DNA of 32,000 nt from positions 1 to 32,000 of the forward strand of contig NZ_JAQFIQ010000027.1 in NCBI RefSeq assembly GCF_029504745.1, in the 5' to 3' direction. The notes under the pieces are model-generated. The model saw nothing but the letters and a program-made list of their open reading frames with translations, was not told the origin of the DNA and made no database searches. Position numbers and translations under genes: made by a program. This stretch comes from Breznakia sp. PF5-3 (GTDB lineage: Bacteria > Bacillota_I > Bacilli_A > Erysipelotrichales > Erysipelotrichaceae). Every line of letters starts with the position of its first letter. The first letter of the stretch is position 1. Shown piece by piece: positions 5,730-29,702 of the stretch.

Positions 5730-6924
5730 CTTTTAGACTAGCATTCATAACGATTCCAAATGCAAGCATATATGATAATAGTGAAGATCCCCCTGATGAA
5801 ATTAATGGGAGGGTAATTCCCGTAATCGGGAAGAGACCGATTACCATTCCAATATTTTCTAGTTGTTGAATGATTAACATTCCTAAAAATCCAATAATCA
5901 TTAATTTTTCAATATTATTTTTACTTCGTGAGGCGATTAAGAATAATCGCAAATCCAAAGCGACACAAAGACCAACAATAAAGATACATCCTAAGAATCC
6001 AAAGTTCATCCCAATAGCTGCAAAGATAAAGTCAGTATGTGCTTCTGGAATACTGATGACATCAGCTTGAAAACCATGACCAGTTAAGCCACTAGAACCA
6101 AGGGATAAGATAGAAGAATATAGTTGTAAACCAGCACTTGTTGAATATTGTTCTGGATATAGCCAACCATAGATTCGCTTTACTTTATAACTAGAACCGA
6201 ATATTTTGGTAAATAGTGTTTGATTAAAATAGAATAAATAAAAGAATGTAACTAGTGCTACGACAACAAGAATGGTTCCAATAATAATCCATTCTCTACG
6301 AATACCAGAACATATTACCATTAATAAAATAGTAAGAATGATAATAAGGAAAATCCCTGTATCTGGTTGCAATAGAATTAATGCTAATGGTGGTAATAGC
6401 CATTTTCCAAGTTTAAGGAAAAGTTGAATATCACTTTCAAAAGAATCTTCTCGTTTATCTTCGTTGTGATCTACAATCGTGTATGCAGATATGATAATAA
6501 GAATAACTTTCATGAACTCCGACGGTTGGATCGTTCCAATGAAGGGGAACTCTAACCAAGCGGTGGCTCCATTAACCGTTTTTGCAAAGGGAAGTGTCAT
6601 TCCTAAAAAACGTTGAAAAATATGTAAATCAAGAAATAAATATATTAGTAAAGCTAAAAAGATAAAATATCCGATTCTAGCAAAAGTATTAAGATTATCA
6701 TTTCCTAGGTACATGATGATAGCAATAACAATAATACCAATGATGTAAAATTGAATTTGTTTTCCTAAAATTCCATTGAATCCACCAGTAGGTACATAAG
6801 CAGGAACTAGTGGAAAGGCAGCATAAATTGCAATGATACTTGATATAAAAATCAACACTAGGATAATTGTAAGAATGAAATCAAACTTTTGCGGTTGACG
6901 GACTTTCGATAATTGTTGTTTCAT
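5701..6924 (-). CDS. SEDS family peptidoglycan glycosyltransferase (FtsW/RodA/SpoVE)
   Basis: 407 aa, about 10 TM segments. C-terminal signature GITLPLISSGGSSLLSYMLAFGIVMN is typical of SEDS proteins. Confidence 0.88.
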   Translation of the reverse strand: MKQQLSKVRQPQKFDFILTIILVLIFISSIIAIYAAFPLVPAYVPTGGFNGILGKQIQFYIIGIIVIAIIMYLGNDNLNTFARIGYFIFLALLIYLFLDLHIFQRFLGMTLPFAKTVNGATAWLEFPFIGTIQPSEFMKVILIIISAYTIVDHNEDKREDSFESDIQLFLKLGKWLLPPLALILLQPDTGIFLIIILTILLMVICSGIRREWIIIGTILVVVALVTFFYLFYFNQTLFTKIFGSSYKVKRIYGWLYPEQYSTSAGLQLYSSILSLGSSGLTGHGFQADVISIPEAHTDFIFAAIGMNFGFLGCIFIVGLCVALDLRLFLIASRSKNNIEKLMIIGFLGMLIIQQLENIGMVIGLFPITGITLPLISSGGSSLLSYMLAFGIVMNASLKAKKLSDYVY

Positions 6925-7343
6925 AAAATCTTCTCCATCATTCGATGCTCAATATCAGCATCTAAATATATATCACCATAGGCAATAAAACCATTTTTTT
7001 CATAAAAAGGAATTGCTACAGTTTGTGCTCCTAAAACAAGTTTTTCAGCTTGTTCTTGATGAGCTATTTTTTCAATCTCCTTTAGCATAAATGAGCCACA
7101 GTGTTTATTACGAAATTCTTTTAACACAGCAACACGACCAACGTGCCAAGTTGTTCCATGACGAATGACACGACAAGTAGCAATTGGCTTATTGTCGCTG
7201 TAAACAAGGTATTGATTACAGGTTTTGTCTTCTTCATCTAACTCGATCAGAGGATCAACACATTGTTCTTTGACAAATACTTTGATACGGATTTCCATAA
7301 GTGAAAAATATTCAAATTGTGTAGTTGCTTTTGTGAATCTCAT
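6921..7343 (-). CDS. GNAT family N-acetyltransferase (small, about 140 aa)
   Basis: The internal ATG at 7343 is preceded by AAGGAGGAAATCC. The GNAT core is VAVLKEFRNKHCGSFMLKEIEKIA. The stop overlaps the SEDS start as ATGA (6921-6924). The longer ORF-track version (to 7580) runs antisense through the M-box and is rejected. Confidence 0.8.
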   Translation of the reverse strand: MRFTKATTQFEYFSLMEIRIKVFVKEQCVDPLIELDEEDKTCNQYLVYSDNKPIATCRVIRHGTTWHVGRVAVLKEFRNKHCGSFMLKEIEKIAHQEQAEKLVLGAQTVAIPFYEKNGFIAYGDIYLDADIEHRMMEKIL

Positions 7344-7433
7344 GGATTTCCTCCTTCTGAATTTTGCATATGTATATGGTATCACAGAAATGATTTTGAT
7401 ACCATGGTAGATATATAAAATCATGTGTAAAAG

Positions 7434-7462
7434 TTGACAAAGGAATATAGAGGTTATATAGT
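7434..7462 (+). promoter_or_regulatory. sigma-A type promoter for the M-box/mgtA transcript
   Basis: TTGACA (7434-7439), 17-nt spacer, TATAGT (7457-7462), just upstream of the riboswitch. Confidence 0.6.
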
Positions 7463-7469
7463 ATAAACG

Positions 7470-7678
7470 TAATAGAAATACCCGGTAGGTGAGATTCCTA
7501 CAAGGATACGGGCTACTGCCGCAAAATAGTGGAAACACTATTCGCTGGTCAACAGGTGTTATCGCATAAAAAGGTTTCATCTAATGTAGTTTCATCGCCT
7601 TGTAGAGTCAAAGCTCAAACGGTGGCGATGTGATTTTTAATCCCATACTGCTTTTTGAGCGTGTGGGATTTTTATTTG
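7470..7678 (+). promoter_or_regulatory. M-box (ykoK leader) Mg2+-sensing riboswitch with intrinsic terminator
   Basis: Conserved M-box blocks CCGGTAGGTGAGATTCCTACAAGGATACGGGCTACTGCCGCAAAA, GCTGGTCAACAGG and AGTCAAAGCTCAAACGGTGGCGATG. These are followed by the hairpin AATCCCATAC (7639-7648) / GTGTGGGATT (7661-7670) and TTTTATTT. A Mg2+ P-type ATPase lies downstream. Confidence 0.85.
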
Positions 7679-7798: not shown

Positions 7799-7875
7799 AT
7801 TAGTTTATGTTTTCATTGCAGACTATTGTTAAAACATTCCTATGAAATTAAAACGAAGAATAGGAGATGAGGACA

Positions 7876-10572
7876 ATGGCAAAAAGAATAAATAGAGCAA
7901 GTGAAGTTCGCTTACAAGAACACAAAGAAGCAATTAAAAACAGATTGTTGGAAGCTTCAAAAATGAATAATGATGAAGTGCTTCTTAAATATCATACAAC
8001 AATGGATGGTTTAAGCGACACACAGGTAGAAAAGAATGTGGAAATGTATGGAGAAAACATCATTTCTAAAAACAAAGAAGATTCGGTATTTAAAAGATTA
8101 TATGATGCATTCATTAATCCTTTTACAGTGATTTTGATTGTATTGGTTGGTGTATCTTTTTTAAGTGATGTAGTTTTGGCTGCACCAAAAGAAAGAGATT
8201 ATACAACAATTATCATTATTTCTTGTATGGTATTTATCAGCGGTATTTTAAGGTTTGTGCAAGAATCACGTTCAAATAATGCAGCAGAAAAATTAAATGA
8301 AATGATTGAGACAACTACAAAAGTCAAACGGTTGAATGAACAAGAAAAAGAGATTCCACTTGATGAAATAGTAGTAGGAGATATTATTTATTTTTCAGCA
8401 GGAGATATGATTCCTGCTGATATGCGTGTACTTAACGCAAAAGATTTATTTGTAAACCAAGGATCATTAACAGGAGAAAGTGAACCTGTAGAAAAGTTTG
8501 CAAACAATAAAATAAAAGGAACACTTACTGAAACAAGCAATTTAATTTTTATGGGAAGTAATGTTGTAAGTGGTTCAGCAATTGGCGTGGTATTATCGGT
8601 AGGAGATGATACAACATTTGGTTCCATTGTTGGAGATGTAAATCAAAAAGCCCCAGAAACAAGTTTTGAAATAGGAATTAATAAAGTTTCGTGGGTGTTA
8701 ATTCGTTTCATGTTGGTTATGGTACCAATTGTTTTTGTGATTAATGGACTTACAAAAAATGATTGGTTACATGCCCTTATGTTTGCTATTTCAATTGCTG
8801 TGGGATTAACTCCAGAAATGTTGCCAATGATTACAACGACATGTCTTGCAAAAGGTGCAGTAGCAATGTCAAAGAAGAAAGTGATTGTGAAAAACATGAA
8901 TTCCATTCAAAATTTTGGTGCAATGGATATATTGTGTACAGATAAAACAGGAACAATAACGGTTGATAAAGTAGTATTGCAACATAATTTAGATGTACAT
9001 GGAAATGAAGATGATCGTGTATTACGACATGCATTTTTAAATAGTTATTATCAAACAGGATTGAAAAATTTTATTGATTTAGCAATCATTAATAAAAGTA
9101 AGCAAAAGGATATTGATGATATTGTAATTGATCGTTTTGAAAAAGTGGATGAAATTCCTTTTGATTTCAATCGTCGTAGAATGAGTGTTGTAGTTAGTGA
9201 TAAAACCGGAAAAACACAATTGATTACCAAAGGTGCAGTTGAAGAAATTCTTAGTGTATGTTCATTTGTTGAATATCATGGAGATGTACAACCAATTGAC
9301 GAGAATATTAAGGATAAGGTATTAAAGGTTGTTGAGCAGTTGAATCATGAAGGAATGCGTGTAATTGCAGTTGCACAAAAGAGTAATCCTGCAGTGGTTG
9401 GTGCTTTTGAAACAAAAGATGAAAAGGATATGGTATTAATTGGATATTTGGCATTTTTAGACCCGCCAAAGGAAACAACAAAAGAATCCATTCGAACGCT
9501 TGTTGAGTATGGAGTAGAAGTAAAAGTTCTTACTGGCGATAACGATATGGTTACGAAAAGTATCTGTAGACAAGTAGGTATTGATGTTAAAGAGGTTATT
9601 TTGGGTAGTGATTTAGATGAAATGAGTGATGAAGAAGTTAAGAAGGAAGTTAAACATGTTGATGTATTCGCAAAATTATCACCATCACAAAAAGCAAGGT
9701 TAGTAAAACTAATGAAAGACAATGGAAATGTTGTTGGCTTTATGGGAGATGGCATCAATGATGCTCCAGCGATGAACCAATCAGATATTGGAATTTCGGT
9801 AGATACAGCAGTAGATATCGCAAAAGAATCAGCAGATATTATTCTATTAGAAAAAGATTTGATGGTTCTTGAAGAAGGTATTATCGAAGGACGAAAAACA
9901 TATGGAAATATGATTAAATACATTAAGATGACAGCAAGTTCAAACTTTGGAAATATGTTTTCGGTTTTGGTTGCTAGTGCCTTTTTACCATTTTTACCAA
10001 TGAGTGCAGTACAGTTGATTTTCTTAAACTTAATATATGACTTATCTTGTACAGCAATTCCTTGGGATAATGTGGATCTTGAATATCTTAAAAAACCAAG
10101 AGATTGGAATGCAGATGGAATTGCAAGTTTTATGAAGTGGATTGGACCTACTAGTTCCATTTTTGATATTACTACTTACATATTATTATATTTTGTAGTA
10201 TGTCCTGCTGTAACAGGAGGATTATTATTCCATCAAATAAGTGATCCAAATATACAACTACAGTATATCGCAGTATTTCAAACAGGATGGTTAATTGAAT
10301 CTATATGGACACAAACCTTGGTTATTCATATGATTCGAACACCAAAGATTCCTTTTTTCCAAAGTAGAGCATCACTTATGGTTGGTGTATTTACAAGTAT
10401 ATCAATAGTTGTGGTAACGGTTATTCCATATACTATTATAGGAGAAATGTTACATCTTACTCCATTACCATTGCTATATTATGGTTGGTTATTATTAACG
10501 ATAGTATTATATATGGTTTTGGTTACGATTGTGAAAAAATACTATATTAAAAAGCACGGTGAACTATTATAA
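7876..10572 (+). CDS. mgtA: magnesium-translocating P-type ATPase (MgtA/MgtB family)
   Basis: P-type ATPase motifs [17 protein letters not shown] and [10 protein letters not shown]. The length and C-terminal TM bundle are typical of MgtA, and it is preceded by an M-box. I prefer the ATG at 7876 (GGAG at 7863-7866) over 7867. Confidence 0.9.
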
Positions 10573-24551: not shown

Positions 24552-24580
24552 TGAACCTTTTTGATGTAAAAAGTGTCTAA
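24552..24580 (+). promoter_or_regulatory. ECF-type promoter motif, copy 1 (TGAAC-N17-TGTCTAA)
   Basis: TGAAC at 24552-24556 and GTCTAA at 24575-24580, with exactly 18 nt between GAAC and GTC. It lies 54 nt upstream of the sigma-region-4 fragment. The downstream block TTAATGAAGG is also shared with copies 2 and 3. Confidence 0.6.
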
Positions 24581-24633
24581 TTAATGAAGGGATAATTATT
24601 TGGAAGTAAAGTAAATAGGAAGGAAGTGCAAAT

Positions 24634-24981
24634 ATGGAAATCGGATCAGATGTTATTCTAGCAGTAAAAACAGAAATCGAAAATATGCCAGTAAAATATA
24701 AATTTATTGCATTGCTTTGGTATTTTGAAGAATTTACTGTTGTAGACATTTCAAATATTTTGAATATTCCAGAAGAAATCGTGGAAATTAGAATTGATAA
24801 AGTAGAAAGTATGATTCGTCCTACAATTTTGGTAGAAGGAATGACTTCGGCAAGAAAGTATTCAAAACATTTTCCTGTTGTGGTTTCAAAGGCGTTTGAT
24901 TTGATTATTAAGAGTTATCAGATGCCTGCTGAAACAGAGAGTAGAATATATGTAAACATTTTAAATACATGTCTTTCATAA
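24634..24981 (+). pseudogene. truncated paralogue of the sigma-fusion genes, keeping only sigma region 4 plus the juxtamembrane linker
   Basis: The 115-aa ORF aligns to residues of about 125-225 of the 438-aa protein (VKTEIENMP..., YFEEFT..., IPEE..., ARKYSKHFPVVVSKAFDLII vs PAKYFSFAFTPIMFSAFQQII). DNA identity is visible (AAAACAGAAATCGAAAATATGCC vs AAAACCGAAATTGAAAATATGCC). It lacks region 2, the TM span and the ectodomain. It keeps an RBS (GGAAGGAAG), a promoter copy and a terminator. Confidence 0.65.
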
Positions 24982-25010
24982 AATGGAAAAAATATATATA
25001 GAAAAAAGTA

Positions 25011-25047
25011 GCAGATAGAACAACGTGTTTTATTTGCTTTTTATTTT
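25011..25047 (+). terminator. rho-independent terminator after the sigma fragment
   Basis: 12-bp stem GCAGATAGAACA / TGTTTTATTTGC (two G-U pairs), loop ACG, followed by TTTTTATTTT. Confidence 0.7.
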
Positions 25048-25059
25048 GAAAATGAAAAT

Positions 25060-25086
25060 TATGCTATTTAAGTGAAAAATAGCATA
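25060..25086. repeat. perfect 10-bp inverted repeat upstream of promoter copy 2
   Basis: TATGCTATTT (25060-25069) and AAATAGCATA (25077-25086) with a 7-nt spacer. No T-run follows. It lies about 100 nt upstream of the -35 of copy 2. Confidence 0.5.
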
Positions 25087-25188
25087 GAATATTACACAAT
25101 TGTAAATACTTATGGTATGCTTTTAGTATGGAATTATTCTAATCAAAATTAGCAAATAGAAGATAAATGTTTATTTTTTTATAAAAAA

Positions 25189-25217
25189 TGAACGAAAAGA
25201 ATAATGAAATTGTCTAA
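25189..25217 (+). promoter_or_regulatory. ECF-type promoter motif, copy 2 (TGAAC-N17-TGTCTAA)
   Basis: TGAAC at 25189-25193 and GTCTAA at 25212-25217, with the same 18-nt GAAC-to-GTC spacing. The AAATGAACGAAA block is identical to copy 3. It lies 75 nt upstream of the 438-aa sigma-fusion ATG. Confidence 0.65.
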
Positions 25218-25291
25218 ATTAAGAGGAAATTTGAATTTATTAAGGAAATATGCTAATTTTGTTTTGAATAATAAAAAAAAGGGAGCACATA

Positions 25292-26608
25292 ATGGGTAAA
25301 AAAAGTATTGATGTGAAATATGTAAAACGATTGAAACAAGGCGATCCTGAAGCTTTTGAAGAAATCTTTCGTTTTTATAAAGACTCTATATATTATTTTT
25401 CCTTAACCTTTTTGAAGAATCGAGCAGATGCGGAAGAAATTGTTCAAGAAACCTTTATAACAGCAATGAAAAATATTGGTTCTTTGGAAAAACCGGCATC
25501 ATTTCATTCTTGGCTTCACAAAATAGCGTATAATAAATCAATGACCCTCTACAAAAAGAATAGCAAGAATGTACAACTAGATAGTGATTTTGATCTAGAA
25601 AACATGATTGAAGGAGAGGAAGGTCCAGCTGGTATGTTATCGCGTAATGAACTAATTTCAACTATAAAAACCGAAATTGAAAATATGCCTAATACATTAG
25701 TTCAGGTCGCACAATTGCGTTATTTTGAGGATTTTACAACCAGAGAGATTTCTGAAATAATGGATATTCCTGAAGGAACGGTTAAAACAAGGTTAAATAA
25801 AGTTAGAAAGATAATTCAACCAAAGCTTGATACAAAAGGGTTTTCTCCTGCAAAATATTTTTCATTTGCGTTTACACCAATAATGTTTAGTGCTTTCCAA
25901 CAAATTATTGATTCACATACTTTGTCAAATGCAGTAGCAAATAAGATGTTTGAAAATATGTCAGTAGCAATTGGTGGAGCGGCAGGATTAGCTGCAAGTG
26001 CAGGCGCAGCAGCAGGTTCTGCAGGTGCAGGTGCATCAAATGCAAGCAATGGATTGCTTACAGCAGCCAAGGTTGCAGTGGCAGCTGTTGCTGGAGGGTC
26101 TGGTGTCTATGGAGTTTATAATGTAGTGCAATCAACAGGGCCTAATGTAGAGCAAATTTCATATTATAATGAAATAACGAATAAAGATATTGAGGTTGAA
26201 GTAATATTAAGTAAAAAAGAAAATGAAGAAGATATAAAAATATTGTATAATGGTAATGATGTAACATTTACTGCTGAAGACAAGACATTGACATTTGTAG
26301 CGAAAGCAAATGGTGAATATGTAGTAGAAGTTGGCGGAACACAAAATATATTTACAATTTCCAACATTGATAAACAATCACCGGAGTTGATATCTGTCGA
26401 AAAGAGTGGAAATAGTGTGGTATTTTCATATAATGATGATGTTTCAGGAATTGATTTTGAAAAATCATATATTACTGTAAGTACAGGGGAAAAAATAAGC
26501 TTACCAACTAATAACGTAATCAATGGTGATTATAGTGGTAGTATAAAAGTAAACTTATATGATAAAGCGGGGAATGTTGCAGAATATGAAGTAGATTTAG
26601 ATGCATAA
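25292..26608 (+). CDS. ECF-type sigma-70 family factor fused to a Gly/Ala-rich predicted membrane span and a beta-rich C-terminal (Ig-like?) domain
   Basis: N-terminal sigma region 2 (FEEIFRFYKDSIYYFSLTFLKNRADAEEIVQETF...WLHKIAYN). Region 4 HTH (LRYFEDFTTREISEIMDIPEGTVKTRLNKVRK). Then KYFSFAFTPIMFSAF, an Ala/Gly tract, the hydrophobic LLTAAKVAVAAVAGGSGVYGVYNVV, and about 170 aa of alternating beta-strand-like sequence. Strong RBS GGGAGC. Confidence 0.85.
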   Translation: MGKKSIDVKYVKRLKQGDPEAFEEIFRFYKDSIYYFSLTFLKNRADAEEIVQETFITAMKNIGSLEKPASFHSWLHKIAYNKSMTLYKKNSKNVQLDSDFDLENMIEGEEGPAGMLSRNELISTIKTEIENMPNTLVQVAQLRYFEDFTTREISEIMDIPEGTVKTRLNKVRKIIQPKLDTKGFSPAKYFSFAFTPIMFSAFQQIIDSHTLSNAVANKMFENMSVAIGGAAGLAASAGAAAGSAGAGASNASNGLLTAAKVAVAAVAGGSGVYGVYNVVQSTGPNVEQISYYNEITNKDIEVEVILSKKENEEDIKILYNGNDVTFTAEDKTLTFVAKANGEYVVEVGGTQNIFTISNIDKQSPELISVEKSGNSVVFSYNDDVSGIDFEKSYITVSTGEKISLPTNNVINGDYSGSIKVNLYDKAGNVAEYEVDLDA

Positions 26609-26625
26609 TATAAATGGAGATGAAT

Positions 26626-27966
26626 ATGAAAAAAATAAGAAAAATAAAAATATTCTTTCTAATTGCAATAATGTTATTTGGAACCATTTTGGCGAGTAGC
26701 ATTTTTCGTGCATCCATAAGTGCAGATGATGAAACTAAAGTACATGTAAATGTCTATAGTAATTTATATTATAATAACAATGGTAATTATGAGGATATTC
26801 CAGTAGAAGGATTACCTTATGAAGCAGATGTAGTATTAGAAATACATGCTTCTACAAAGAAAGAATATGAAACGGTAATTGATTATAAAGATAAAGTAGG
26901 AACAGTAGTATATTCATATTATGATGGAGTGTTAAAAATTGATGATCGCAATGCTACACAAGAAGAATATGAAGCATTTATTGGCAATGGGATGTCAGAT
27001 GTACTTTCAAGTAAGGAAAGAATATATACTTTACATTTGAAATCAACAGGTGAAGATGAAGGGTTGATAACTTGTGGTATTAATTTTCTTTTTAGACATC
27101 CAAGTGGAACAATTAAATATTTGTATACATTGAAGCATAAAGGTTTATTTCATGGCGAAACATATGCTGTAAATTTTTATGATTATGATGGTTCTGTAAT
27201 AAAAAGTGAACGTGTAAAACCAGGAACAGCTGTAGAAGTTCCAACGGTTAAAAGAGAAGGATATAATTTTCTTGGTTTCAATACGCTTGAAAATGGAACA
27301 GGTGAATATTATAAAGGTCAAGAAATAGTTGAAGATATGTCATTTTATGCTATTTATGAAAAAAAGATATATCGGGTAAATTATTATGTGGATGATGAAT
27401 TATATACAACACGAGAAGTTGCTCATGGTGAAGATGCAGAAAATATTAAATTAAAAGACACAGCGAGTCGTAAATTTGTTGGATGGGACAAGAGCTTAAA
27501 TAATGTTACTAGTGATTATGATGTACATGCAGTATTTAAAACAATTAAACCTATACCAAGTCCGCCAAAAGATGCAGAAAAACCAAGTACAGATACTTCT
27601 ATAAAAGAAAAGGAAGTTATTGCGAAGCCAAGTGAGGCAGTAACCCCAAAAGCAGAAATAGAACAAAAAGAACCATCAAAAAAAGATGAAAAAAAGGCAG
27701 CGAAAGTAAAAGCTAAAATTAAAAAAACAAGTTCTATTGAAGGAAATGATACATTAGAAGCAGATAATAAAGCAGCTATAATAAATAATGATGATAATGC
27801 AGAGGTGATTGATTCAGAAGAGAAAGTATCAGCTTCTGTGGCAAGCAAAGAGGTGGGTTCATCAAAGGATGACACATTAATGAAACTATTGCCGTTTGCT
27901 GTTTCAACATTAAGCATGTTGGTATTGTTATTATTGACGGTAAAAAGTAAGATTTTTAAAAGATAA
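26626..27966 (+). CDS. secreted or cell-surface protein with Listeria-Bacteroides (InlB B / Flg_new) repeats and a C-terminal hydrophobic anchor
   Basis: Signal peptide MKKIRKIKIFFLIAIMLFGTILASS. Two repeats of the YxVxF...G...GYxFxGW...Y type (YAVNFYDYDGS...REGYNFLGF...FYAIYE and YRVNYYVDDE...RKFVGWD...VHAVFK). A Pro/Lys/Glu-rich spacer follows. The terminal LLPFAVSTLSMLVLLLLTV is followed by KSKIFKR. GGAG lies before the ATG at 26626. It starts 17 nt after the sigma-fusion stop. Confidence 0.8.
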   Translation: MKKIRKIKIFFLIAIMLFGTILASSIFRASISADDETKVHVNVYSNLYYNNNGNYEDIPVEGLPYEADVVLEIHASTKKEYETVIDYKDKVGTVVYSYYDGVLKIDDRNATQEEYEAFIGNGMSDVLSSKERIYTLHLKSTGEDEGLITCGINFLFRHPSGTIKYLYTLKHKGLFHGETYAVNFYDYDGSVIKSERVKPGTAVEVPTVKREGYNFLGFNTLENGTGEYYKGQEIVEDMSFYAIYEKKIYRVNYYVDDELYTTREVAHGEDAENIKLKDTASRKFVGWDKSLNNVTSDYDVHAVFKTIKPIPSPPKDAEKPSTDTSIKEKEVIAKPSEAVTPKAEIEQKEPSKKDEKKAAKVKAKIKKTSSIEGNDTLEADNKAAIINNDDNAEVIDSEEKVSASVASKEVGSSKDDTLMKLLPFAVSTLSMLVLLLLTVKSKIFKR

Positions 27967-27988
27967 GTAAAAAAACTTATCTTTTTTT
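27961..27988 (+). terminator. rho-independent terminator after the surface-protein gene
   Basis: Stem AGATAAGT (27961-27968) / ACTTATCT (27975-27982) with an A6 loop, then a T7 run. It overlaps the stop codon. Confidence 0.7.
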
Positions 27989-27997
27989 AAAAATAAA

Positions 27998-28026
27998 TGA
28001 ACGAAATGCTATTTTTACTTGTCTAA
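27998..28026 (+). promoter_or_regulatory. ECF-type promoter motif, copy 3 (TGAAC-N17-TGTCTAA), with no adjacent gene
   Basis: TGAAC at 27998-28002 and GTCTAA at 28021-28026, with identical spacing. The next credible CDS starts about 400 nt downstream, beyond a terminator. Confidence 0.6.
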
Positions 28027-28320
28027 ATAATGAGGTGGATAGAGAAGCTAGATGTATAAGAAACTTGATGCAATGAAAGAAGTAATAAATTTATGACCTA
28101 ATATATTATGACCAAATATACTATACAACTTCTGGAGGGGCGTTATATATCGTAGATAAATAACTTGTATTATAATAATCAAAATTTTTAGACATTACAC
28201 TCACATAATTGTTCATCGGAGGGGGATGAACCTAAGCGTATGGGAAGATAGGATTTTAGATAATAATTGAAATCTTATACATCTACAAGCATTGTTTAAG
28301 GCAGATTATTGAATTGAAAA

Positions 28321-28356
28321 GGAAAAGGTTCGTTTAACGAACTTTTTCCTTTTTAT
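28321..28356 (+). terminator. strong rho-independent terminator inside the copy-3 promoter to sigma-2 interval
   Basis: 12-bp stem GGAAAAGGTTCG / CGAACTTTTTCC (one G-U pair), loop TTTAA, followed by TTTTTAT. Confidence 0.75.
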
Positions 28357-28370
28357 GCGAGGTGTTTTAA

Positions 28371-28399
28371 TTGTATTTTTATAGCGAGTGTGGTATTAC
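28371..28399 (+). promoter_or_regulatory. candidate sigma-A promoter proximal to the second sigma-fusion gene
   Basis: TTGTAT (28371-28376), 17-nt spacer ending in TGg, TATTAC (28394-28399). It lies 25 nt upstream of the ATG at 28425. Confidence 0.35.
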
Positions 28400-28424
28400 T
28401 ATTGTGGGGAAAGCAAGGAGTAGT

Positions 28425-29702
28425 ATGAAGAGGCGGCAGATTGATACAAAGTATATAAAGCAGCTTAAGGAAGGCGATGAGTCTGCTTTTAACAAGGTTT
28501 TTGATTTTTACAAGGATTCAATCTATTTTTTCGCATTGTCATATGTGAAAAATAGAGCGGATGCAGAGGAAGTAGTTCAAGAAGTATTTATTCAAGTATT
28601 AAAAAGTATACATACACTAAAGAAGCTTGATTCTTTTGGATCGTGGTTGCATAAAATTGCTTATTATATGGCGATTAGTATTCAGCGCTCAAAAGGAAAT
28701 CAACATATCCAATTAAATGAAGAATACGATATAGAGAATATGGTAGTGGAGAAAGAAGGACCAGACAAGATGTTATCGAAGAATGAAATGGTGGAAAGGG
28801 TGCGTGAGGAGATCGAGAAGATGCCCCCCAAACTGACTAGGATAGCACAATTACGGTATTTTGAGGATTATTCAACAAGAGAAATTGCAGAAATTGTTGA
28901 TATTCCAGAAGGAACGGTAAAATCAAGATTAAATAAAATAAGAAGAATGATGAAGCCGATTTTAGAGACAAATGGAATATCACCAAGCAAATATTTCTCA
29001 TTTGCACTTACACCACTTATTGTGGAGGCAATGCAGTTGATAATGAATAAAAATAGTATGCCACAGGATGTAGGGGTTGGAATAAAATCACATGTATTAG
29101 CTAATGCTGGAAGCATATGGCAAGAGTTAGCGAGCAATGAAAGTGTTCGTCAGGGGTTATCAAATATGACCAAAGCAGGATTAGCTTTAGCTACAGGTGG
29201 AGCTGGACTAATAGGACTCAATGTTTTAAATGAACAACAAGGGATGCATATTGAAAAGGTGAATATACCAACTGAAATTTCTAAATATCCAATTGATGTG
29301 GAAATCCAAGTAGATAAAAACATTAATGATGAACATGTGGAAGTTGCCCATGAAAATGAAAACATCCACTTTGATGTGGAGAATGATAGACTCATTTTTG
29401 AAGCCAAAGAAGATGGTGATTATACAATTCAAGTAGATAATGATAAAATGATTATTCATGTAGAGAATGATGGAAGGAAACCACCTATATTTGTAGAAGT
29501 AGAACAAACAGAAGGTGGAATTCAATTGAATGTAGTAAAAGGCGAACGAATTTTGAATTATGATGATTCTTATATTATCTATCAAGGAGAGCAATATTCT
29601 TTTGATGAGCATGGTTTTATAGAAGGTGAGTTTGAAGGCGATATTCAGATTTATATTGTTGAAGAGGATGGACCAACAACCCAAATTCACCAACAAATTT
29701 AA
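28425..29702 (+). CDS. second ECF-type sigma factor fused to a predicted membrane span and a beta-rich C-terminal domain (paralogue of 25292..26608)
   Basis: AAGGAG at 28415-28420 precedes the ATG at 28425. Region 2 (FNKVFDFYKDSIYFFALSYVKNRADAEEVVQEVF...WLHKIAYY). Region 4 (LRYFEDYSTREIAEIVDIPEGTVKSRLNKIRR). The conserved KYFSFALTPLIV, the hydrophobic AGLALATGGAGLIGLNVL, and then a beta-rich acidic C-terminal domain alignable with the paralogue. Confidence 0.85.
   Translation: MKRRQIDTKYIKQLKEGDESAFNKVFDFYKDSIYFFALSYVKNRADAEEVVQEVFIQVLKSIHTLKKLDSFGSWLHKIAYYMAISIQRSKGNQHIQLNEEYDIENMVVEKEGPDKMLSKNEMVERVREEIEKMPPKLTRIAQLRYFEDYSTREIAEIVDIPEGTVKSRLNKIRRMMKPILETNGISPSKYFSFALTPLIVEAMQLIMNKNSMPQDVGVGIKSHVLANAGSIWQELASNESVRQGLSNMTKAGLALATGGAGLIGLNVLNEQQGMHIEKVNIPTEISKYPIDVEIQVDKNINDEHVEVAHENENIHFDVENDRLIFEAKEDGDYTIQVDNDKMIIHVENDGRKPPIFVEVEQTEGGIQLNVVKGERILNYDDSYIIYQGEQYSFDEHGFIEGEFEGDIQIYIVEEDGPTTQIHQQI

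Follow-up and report, generated by a model that had tools for sequence, protein, structure and literature searches.

A 32,000-nucleotide (nt) stretch of the Breznakia sp. PF5-3 contig NZ_JAQFIQ010000027.1 (positions 1 to 32,000 of the forward strand; hereafter the window) carries three copies of the motif TGAAC-N17-TGTCTAA, designated P1, P2 and P3. Judged by sequence comparison, the three sites are very probably promoters read by RNA polymerase (RNAP) containing an extracytoplasmic function (ECF) sigma factor, most likely the locally encoded sigma fusion 1 (sigma 1), possibly together with its paralogue sigma fusion 2 (sigma 2). The motif alone is a textbook ECF promoter, and the main gain is a reliable regulatory annotation in an uncultured insect-gut Breznakia lineage. 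The promoters point to a family of ECF sigmas that carry a putative membrane anchor together with an immunoglobulin (Ig)-like ectodomain and apparently control large surface adhesins. They also point to a conserved paralogue consisting of sigma region 4 and two further helices (the sigma-4-only protein) and to a conserved candidate non-coding RNA under the same promoter type. The promoter itself belongs to a known ECF class; unusual are the sigma-4-only paralogue, the candidate small RNA, and paralogue-specific promoter variants tied to adhesins. The features of the locus are listed in Table 1.

Table 1. Promoters, genes, terminators and candidate RNA of the sigma locus (window coordinates; aa, amino acids)
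Feature	Position	Strand	Basis or remark
P1, ECF-type promoter TGAAC-N17-TGTCTAA	24552..24580	+	exact match; weight-matrix score 36.6 bits
Sigma-region-4-only protein, 115 aa	24634..24981	+	sigma-4 helix-turn-helix and two additional helices
Intrinsic terminator ending the P1 unit	25010..25038	+	terminator scan; 13-pair stem followed by T run
P2, ECF-type promoter before the sigma-fusion operon	25189..25217	+	exact match; weight-matrix score 23.0 bits
ECF sigma fusion 1, 438 aa	25292..26608	+	sigma2 and sigma4, two helices, Ala/Gly-rich putative transmembrane segment, tandem Ig-like C-terminal domain
Flg_new (Listeria-Bacteroides repeat) surface/membrane protein, 450 aa	26614..27966	+	Pfam PF09479; 5 nt after sigma 1
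Intrinsic terminator of the sigma 1-Flg_new operon	27961..27988	+	stem AGATAAGT / ACTTATCT plus T7, read from the sequence
P3, ECF-type promoter	27998..28026	+	exact match; weight-matrix score 31.0 bits
Candidate sigma-dependent non-coding RNA, ~320 nt	28034..28354	+	headed by P3, ended by a terminator
Invariant block TGGAGGGGCG(G/T)TAT	28133-28146	+	95-121 nt after the -10 in 6/6 loci
Strong intrinsic terminator ending the P3 unit, just before sigma 2	28317..28354	+	15-16 bp stem plus T run; fold and sequence
ECF sigma fusion 2, 425 aa from an internal ATG	28425..29702	+	paralogue of sigma 1; Pfam sigma domains

In an earlier note made from the sequence alone, motif copies had been placed at 24552, 25189 and 27998. 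All three are exact matches and lie on the plus strand. When up to one mismatch was allowed on both strands of the whole window, no further match was found (0.29 expected), and at least three matches were obtained in 0 of 100 shuffles. The looser pattern TGAAC.{18}GTCT was likewise found three times, against an expectation of 0.17 and a shuffle maximum of 1. To counter the post-hoc definition of the pattern, a weight matrix was built from 14 sites of five related contigs, leaving the window out. Only P1, P2 and P3 exceeded 8 bits when both strands of the 32 kb were scored with this independent matrix; the shuffle maximum was 6.2 bits (20 shuffles). The three sites cluster within 3.5 kb near the sigma genes, and the other 28 kb of the window hold zero matrix sites. 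The earlier note, in which no further match had been noticed by eye, was confirmed in this way, apart from a minus-strand near-copy with an N16 spacer that is described below.

The distance from GAAC to GTC is 18 nt in 3/3 copies, as had been reported. P1 is located 54 nt before the 115 aa open reading frame (ORF) and P2 75 nt before sigma 1. A few bases 3' of GTCTAA, all three copies carry a purine-rich block, which had been noticed before and is conserved in the orthologues as ATG(A/T)AG.G. Copies 2 and 3 have in addition 12 contiguous bases, AAATGAACGAAA, in common, again in agreement with the earlier description.

An AAC-core -35, a GTC-core -10 and a spacer of 16-17 nt had been taken as canonical ECF architecture, and comparison with characterised promoters supports this assignment. 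The B. subtilis sigmaW promoter is TGAAAC-N16-CGTA. The window sites resemble autoregulated promoters of the SigW/RpoE type in their AAC-core -35, their (C)GTC-core -10 and their spacer length, in the presence of a site upstream of the sigma's own gene, and in a predicted small regulon of envelope or surface genes. They differ from this type in that the -10 reads (T/A)GTCTAA instead of CGTC or CGTA. Moreover, the sigma has no separate anti-sigma partner and carries a putative membrane segment and an extracellular part in the same polypeptide. The architecture also fits the T. tengcongensis RpoE1 promoter, which was dissected by experiment (tGTTAC-N16-CGTC, with CGTC at -13 to -10) and has been compared with the GGAACTT of E. 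coli sigmaE (PMC3397946). By RpoE1 numbering, the predicted start falls within the conserved ATG(A/T)AG block, about 10 nt 3' of the C in GTC.

Six orthologous loci of Breznakia-like Erysipelotrichales were compared, namely the window and L081, L083, L089, L091 and L092. They share the gene order radical-SAM, aroD, small ORF, sigma, Flg_new, followed by mgsA or sigma 2. TGAAC and GTCT are invariant in the 17 sites found over the six loci, and GAAC and GTC are always 18 nt apart; column agreement is 1.0 in both motif blocks versus ~0.5-0.6 in spacers and flanks. The loose pattern was observed 14 times in the five relatives (55 kb), with 0.285 expected and a shuffle maximum of 3. The base before GTC is T or A, not C, in this clade; CGTC is present in the paralogue loci L087, L090 and L093. 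The sites fall into three positional classes. The P1 class, GTGAACCTTTT...GTGTCT(A/T)A, lies 5' of the small ORF in 6/6 loci. The P2 class, ATGAACGA...TTGTCTAAATAATGAAG, lies 5' of the sigma gene in 4/6 loci, i.e. in three besides the window, where the earlier note had correctly placed copy 2 before an operon of a sigma fusion and a surface protein. The P3 class, (G/A)TGAACGAAAT...(A/T)GTCTAAA, lies 3' of the Flg_new terminator in 6/6 loci. In L083, an additional P3-type site heads the gene of a 724 aa InlK_D3 surface protein.

Chance in AT-rich DNA, or a functionless relic of local duplication, is scarcely credible as the source of the similarity. Copies 2 and 3 do share the 12 bases mentioned above, and the locus holds duplicated sigma sequence in sigma 1, sigma 2 and the sigma-4-only gene. 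However, the spacers of the three copies are wholly different, invariance across orthologues is confined to the -35, the -10 and the region of the start, and the observed counts were never reached by shuffles. The orthologous loci do not lack the motif, and the conservation pattern largely refutes a duplication relic. Since the motif is kept at the same positions while the spacers diverge, duplicated flanking DNA and chance are both disposed of as explanations. The doubt voiced in the earlier note, that the similarity might be confined to duplicated flanks, was thus removed by the orthologous intergenic regions, in which the motif is kept and the flanks drift. The term "island" used in the same note did not stand. 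No island signature was found in the base composition of the window, which has a GC content of 0.27-0.34 throughout, the same as in the flanks. The sigma module occupies the same slot between aroD and mgsA in relatives, and the remaining window genes are housekeeping genes.

Two further differences between the classes were recorded. The bases after the -35 are CCTTTT in P1 and CGAAAT in P2 and P3, and this is conserved across orthologues. The P1 spacer is partly palindromic, CTTTTT-N5-AAAAAG (window 24557-24575 and orthologues). The class-specific bases and the P1 palindrome might tune promoter strength or discriminate sigma 1 from sigma 2.

Sigma 1 is an ECF (group 4) sigma factor of SigW-like type and belongs to no named equivalog. 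Both fusions contain Pfam Sigma70_r2 and Sigma70_r4_2 (and Sigma70_ECF), that is regions 2 and 4 only, without region 3 or 1.1. The TIGR02937 sigma70-ECF model scored above its cut-off. SigW was the closest NCBIfam equivalog, and sigma 1 scored below every equivalog cut-off (SigW models NF007223 / TIGR02948, 119.6 versus 209 bits and 106.7 versus 243.1 bits). The AlphaFold2 (AF2) model of sigma 1 has a mean predicted local distance difference test (pLDDT) score of 71.5. It comprises sigma-2 and sigma-4, extra helices at residues 194-228, an Ala/Gly-rich stretch of low confidence at residues 229-278 (pLDDT <50), and two confident C-terminal beta sandwich domains (pLDDT 80-90). In fold searches, the N-terminus matched SigW/RsiW, AlgU/MucA and RpoE/RseA, and the C-terminus matched tandem Ig or fibronectin type III modules. 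The modelled packing of sigma2 and sigma4 resembles that of anti-sigma-bound SigW, CnrH and RpoE, with TM-scores of 0.68-0.71 normalised to the target. The conserved helices at 194-228 could be a divergent inhibitory segment.

The Flg_new gene is predicted from the sequence to be co-transcribed with sigma 1. Its product has hydrophobic segments at the N- and C-terminus. A Flg_new-type gene directly follows the sigma gene in all six orthologous loci (the L081 copy without a recorded Pfam hit) and in the paralogue loci L085 and L087; no Flg_new call was obtained at this position in L090, L093 and L094. The terminator behind the operon is AT-rich and had been skipped by the terminator scan because it contains too few G-C pairs. 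The earlier note had already placed copy 3 directly after it, and this position holds; one correction is required, as copy 3 is not an orphan and heads a conserved non-coding unit.

Sigma 2 had not been mentioned in the earlier note. It is 37% identical to sigma 1 over the full length and begins ~400 nt 3' of P3; an orthologue (P0011) is found in the same position in L089. Full-length homologues of the fusion are few and come from Breznakia, Coprobacillaceae and other assemblies. More distant homologues include fused ECF proteins of 589-767 aa with LRR or CAP domains, so fusion of ECF sigmas to surface-type domains is not rare in Clostridia-like bacteria. In Breznakia sp. OttesenSCG-928-G09, the small ORF (P0072) and sigma 1 (P0001) are both partial and lie on contigs of 80.6 kb and 7.6 kb, respectively; the break in this assembly apparently falls between the paralogous segments that encode sigma-4 (window ~24900-25650).

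Fused sigma/anti-sigma ECF proteins have been described, such as IutY of Pseudomonas putida (ECF243) and the actinobacterial groups ECF48, ECF52 and ECF53, e.g. SCO4117 (PMC8999054, PMC5411451, PMC5826349), and 19 ECF groups carry C-terminal extensions (PMC7826278). Sigma 1 resembles IutY and ECF48/52/53 in its N-terminal ECF sigma domain and its predicted extracytoplasmic domain, and its putative membrane-spanning segment would lie between the two, as in those proteins. In contrast to these proteins, a zinc-finger or FecR-type anti-sigma domain was not detected, the ectodomain is tandem Ig-like, the host is a Gram-positive member of the Erysipelotrichales, and Flg_new follows the sigma gene in most loci. 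By analogy, sigma 1 would work like the fused sigma/anti-sigma ECFs, yet it is not filed as a member of them; regulated proteolysis would be the natural activation model for such a fusion.

Evidence for a link between the local sigma and the motif was obtained from diverged paralogue loci, in which a promoter variant of their own precedes the sigma gene and recurs in front of the neighbouring gene for a giant surface protein. The variants are (T/G)GAAC-N17-(C/T)CTCTA in L085 (B. pachnodae), TGAAC-N17-GCGTC(A/T)TAC in L087, AAAATCCG-N18/19-AATCGTCTATTAT in L090 and (T/A)AAAC-N17-CGTC in L093. In L094, CGAAC-N17-GGTCTAA precedes the sigma gene, and the same GGTCTAATAA -10 precedes a 2016 aa gene. 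The region-4 helix (I/V/M)P(E/V)GT(V/I)K(T/S/N)RL is present in every fetched family member with a GAAC- or AAAC-type -35. P0019 is the sole paralogue with a divergent region-4 helix (IPISTIRDRI) and the sole one with a different -35. Paralogue-specific variants of this kind represent natural sigma/promoter pairs, possibly orthogonal, for studies of ECF specificity or for synthetic biology. In the metagenome sample SRR31861034, TGAAC-N17-CGACTAA was observed upstream of two paralogous sigma fusions, P0019 and P0015 (L090 ~5865-5900 and L094 ~2860-2895), with a second promoter variant nearer each gene. Judged from these sequences, the shared variant may reflect cross-regulation or a cascade between the paralogues.

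The wider occurrence of the motif was assessed in a background set of 848 kb flanking 79 unrelated ECF genes. These genes represent 79 of the 80 loci from a genome-contig scan with the sigma family alignment, which returned mostly unrelated ECFs because generic ECF peptide patterns were used. TGAAC.{18}GTCT matched 10 times in the 848 kb, and 8 of the 10 matches lie 50-140 nt 5' of an ECF gene. The ECFs bearing the motif upstream are ordinary proteins of 143-202 aa with the helix IPEGTVKSRL or VPVGTVKSRL and stem from Clostridia, Bacillus, Pelotomaculum and a cyanobacterium. In some of these background promoters, ATGAAGG again follows the -10. As a rule, the motif is a widespread ECF promoter type that usually precedes the cognate sigma gene.

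Several observations weigh against sigma 1 as the membrane-held reader of the sites. P2 is missing in 2/6 loci, L083 and L092, where only P1 lies upstream of the sigma gene. At the P2 position, no promoter could be recognised in L083, and in L092 a sigma-A-like TTGAAC-N18-TATAAA takes its place. Direct autoregulation through P2 is therefore not universal, and feedback in these two loci would need read-through from P1. With respect to the proposed membrane anchorage, the best 19-residue hydropathy is 1.48 in sigma 1 (residues 254-272) and 1.33 in sigma 2, which is borderline and falls in a segment of low pLDDT; in the paralogue P0019 a clearly hydrophobic helix, IVTLVSVGTIISAVLIGAYMM, was recognised by eye. 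No anti-sigma domain was found with Pfam or NCBIfam between sigma-4 and the putative transmembrane segment, i.e. beyond residue ~185. Finally, the promoter type is common to many ECF sigmas with a shared region-4 helix, and an unlinked ECF sigma of this genome could consequently read the sites.

The last point leads to an alternative in which P1 to P3 are ECF promoters, but their reader is another ECF sigma of this specificity class that is unlinked to the locus, the fused sigmas being targets and not drivers. It fits the frequency of TGAAC-N17-(C)GTCT among canonical ECFs with an IPEGTVKSRL helix, and the variant common to P0015 and P0019 in one metagenome sample hints at cross-regulation. 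The distribution of the sites argues against it: all three cluster in a 3.5 kb stretch around the sigma genes while the remaining 28 kb contain none, they accompany the sigma 1 orthologue in each of the six loci, and the promoter variants co-vary with the local paralogue. A driver encoded elsewhere was therefore judged unlikely, and reading by the local sigma 1 is preferred. The earlier proposal of positive autoregulation and a small local regulon is supported by the sequence comparison; autoregulation via P2 would follow if sigma 1 is the reader.

On this basis, the following mechanism is proposed. RNAP with sigma 1, possibly also with sigma 2, would read the three sites, the -35 core GAAC being contacted by the region-4 helix IPEGTVKTRL and the -10 core GTC by region 2, with transcription predicted to begin around the ATG(A/T)AG block. 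Sigma 1 would be held at the membrane by the single Ala/Gly-rich helix and would expose its tandem Ig-like domains to the exterior. By analogy with the fused sigma/anti-sigma proteins, the cytoplasmic sigma portion would be released or activated in response to an external signal, and the adjacent Flg_new surface protein may take part in the signal response. Active sigma would then act on P2 and thereby on its own operon (sigma 1 and Flg_new) as positive feedback, on P1 and the small sigma-4-only paralogue, and on P3 and the ~320 nt non-coding RNA. In relatives, the same promoter type also precedes large surface adhesin genes. The presence of the sites, their excess over chance, their positional conservation, their co-variation with the sigma paralogues and the domain make-up are observed; from these data we infer sigma dependence, start site, release from the membrane, and what the small protein and the RNA do. 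Tentatively, the locus may constitute a self-contained one-component circuit not yet described in Firmicutes, in which a membrane sigma with an Ig-ectodomain activates itself and its surface partner as well as a dedicated sigma-4-only feedback mimic and a new small RNA with the invariant GGAGGGGCGGUAU; paralogous circuits would each control their own giant adhesin via co-evolved promoter variants.

The P1 unit encodes what had been called a sigma4-only fragment in the earlier note. Its position after copy 1 was correct, but, judged by its orthologues, the ORF is a genuine conserved gene and not a fragment. The orthologues have 111-117 aa and 49-76% identity, and their helix-turn-helix DISNILNIPEEIVEIRIDKVES is near-invariant. 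The orthologues of the sigma fusion are 55-61% identical, and the small protein was rated the better conserved of the two. Its counterpart in sigma 1 is the span of residues 119-223, which comprises sigma-4 and the two following helices and shows 36% identity to the sigma-4-only protein; the NCBIfam sigma models align to the small protein just by their region-4 end. The AF2 model (mean pLDDT 78) gave top fold matches to sigma-4 domains, all with weak E-values (>=0.03). The recognition helix changes from basic to acidic, PEGTVKTRLNKVRK having become PEEIVEIRIDKVES in the small protein. Because the basic recognition residues are lost, the sequence makes it more likely that the protein binds other proteins, as a mimic or a modulator in a feedback loop, than that it binds DNA at the -35. 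Such a mimic could compete for binding to the RNAP flap or to the inhibitory helices of the sigma itself.

The possibility that the motif is not a promoter and serves as an operator for a DNA-binding regulator, e.g. the sigma-4-only protein, has to be considered here, as this protein retains the sigma-4 helix-turn-helix fold and the P1 spacer is partly palindromic. It is very improbable: two blocks with AAC and GTC cores at a fixed spacing of 17 nt, co-oriented and 45-75 nt before start codons, have the geometry of a promoter, and the small protein lacks the basic recognition residues. Interpretation of the sites as promoters is thus retained. In alphaproteobacteria, the sigma-like domain of PhyR acts as a sigma mimic in the EcfG/NepR partner switch. 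Like PhyR, the sigma-4-only protein looks like a portion of an ECF sigma, has its gene alongside those of the sigma system and is not expected to direct transcription. Unlike PhyR, it consists of sigma-4 plus two helices only, without a receiver domain, and it is preceded by the sigma's own promoter type; its role as a mimic is hypothetical. A displaced sigma-4-only paralogue was seen in L097 (7001-7351), beside a Transposase_mut gene and 3' of large surface/dockerin-type proteins. No ECF motif was found upstream of this L097 paralogue, which is uninformative.

The P3 unit is, by its sequence features, a candidate sigma-dependent small RNA. The GGAGGGGCGGTAT block is unchanged across P3 units of ~230-400 nt. 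A terminator-like hairpin is located ~230-400 nt downstream of P3 in 5/6 loci (in L081, L083, L089 and L091 read from the sequence); no such hairpin was evident in the P3 unit of L092. No conserved ORF was found in three frames through the invariant block, the encoded peptides differing in length and sequence. A small ORF was tried and rejected: a Shine-Dalgarno-like GGAGG followed at 6 nt by AT(A/G/T) yields peptides of merely 3-19 aa. The whole window was searched against Rfam at the gathering score, at which the P3 transcript was unmatched, and no family was obtained for it at E<=10. The best sub-threshold match was ohsC with 32.6 bits versus a cut-off of 50, covering the terminator hairpin only. 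The genes after the P3 unit are a convergent mgsA in L091 and L092 and an opposite-strand gene in L083, so that no same-strand gene follows in these loci.

The complete P3 RNA folds with z = -3.45. In RNAalifold and single-sequence folds, the invariant block formed a weak hairpin with GGAG in its loop, at z-scores of -1.6 to +1.3 and with one compensatory pair. A conserved structure of this block was set aside as unsupported, given the non-significant z-scores and the single compensatory pair. In three close relatives, a second hairpin was recognised by eye as compensatory (GTTAAC/GTTAAC, TGTAAC/GTTACA and ATCAACA/TGTTGAT). No complementary target of the invariant block was found in the window. 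A metagenome scan for promoter and RNA block together, TGAAC-N18-GTCTAAA-N92-122-GAGGGGYGKTAT, gave zero matches.

As the gene immediately behind the terminator is a same-strand sigma 2, both in the window and in L089, copy 3 could also be regarded as the sigma 2 promoter, and the ~320 nt as a terminator-containing regulatory leader (attenuator- or riboswitch-like) and not a free RNA. That the RNA folds better than shuffles would suit such a leader. Against it, the P3 unit is present without a downstream gene in L091 and L092, where mgsA is convergent, and the L091 unit closes with a terminator hairpin; an opposite-strand gene follows in L083, and no Rfam match was obtained. In addition, the window and L089 share a sigma-A-like extended -10 element close to the 5' end of sigma 2, which looks separate from P3. 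The leader is consequently rather improbable, and the P3 unit is treated as a candidate small RNA. Read-through from P3 into sigma 2 may occur in the window and in L089.

E. coli has the sigmaE-dependent small RNAs MicA, RybB and MicL. Like these, the P3 unit is non-coding, has an ECF-type promoter at its head and an intrinsic terminator at its end, and would be part of the regulon of the sigma. It differs from them in that there is no sequence or Rfam relationship and in its length of ~230-400 nt.

The element just 5' of sigma 2, TAATTGT-N14-TGTGGTA(T/A)T in the upstream region 28363-28424, is common to the window and L089 and was read by eye. Its sequence has the appearance of an independent sigma-A promoter of the extended -10 type. 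On the minus strand, a near-copy of the motif, TGAAC-N16-TGTCTAA, runs from 28215 down to 28188 and converges on copy 3, with a spacer one base shorter. It overlaps the plus-strand hairpin GTTCATC-GGAGGGG-GATGAAC and is absent from the equivalent place in the orthologues. As its spacer is unlike that of all 17 conserved sites and it is not conserved, it was set aside as a fourth promoter. It is probably due to chance; it could give an antisense transcript.

Outside the sigma locus, an M-box (magnesium) riboswitch was detected with 107.5 bits at window positions 7474-7633 (+), upstream of a gene at 7867-10572 that encodes a P-type cation ATPase of 901 aa. The M-box is overlapped by a GNAT ORF listed on the opposite strand (6921-7580), so the true GNAT start probably lies further in.

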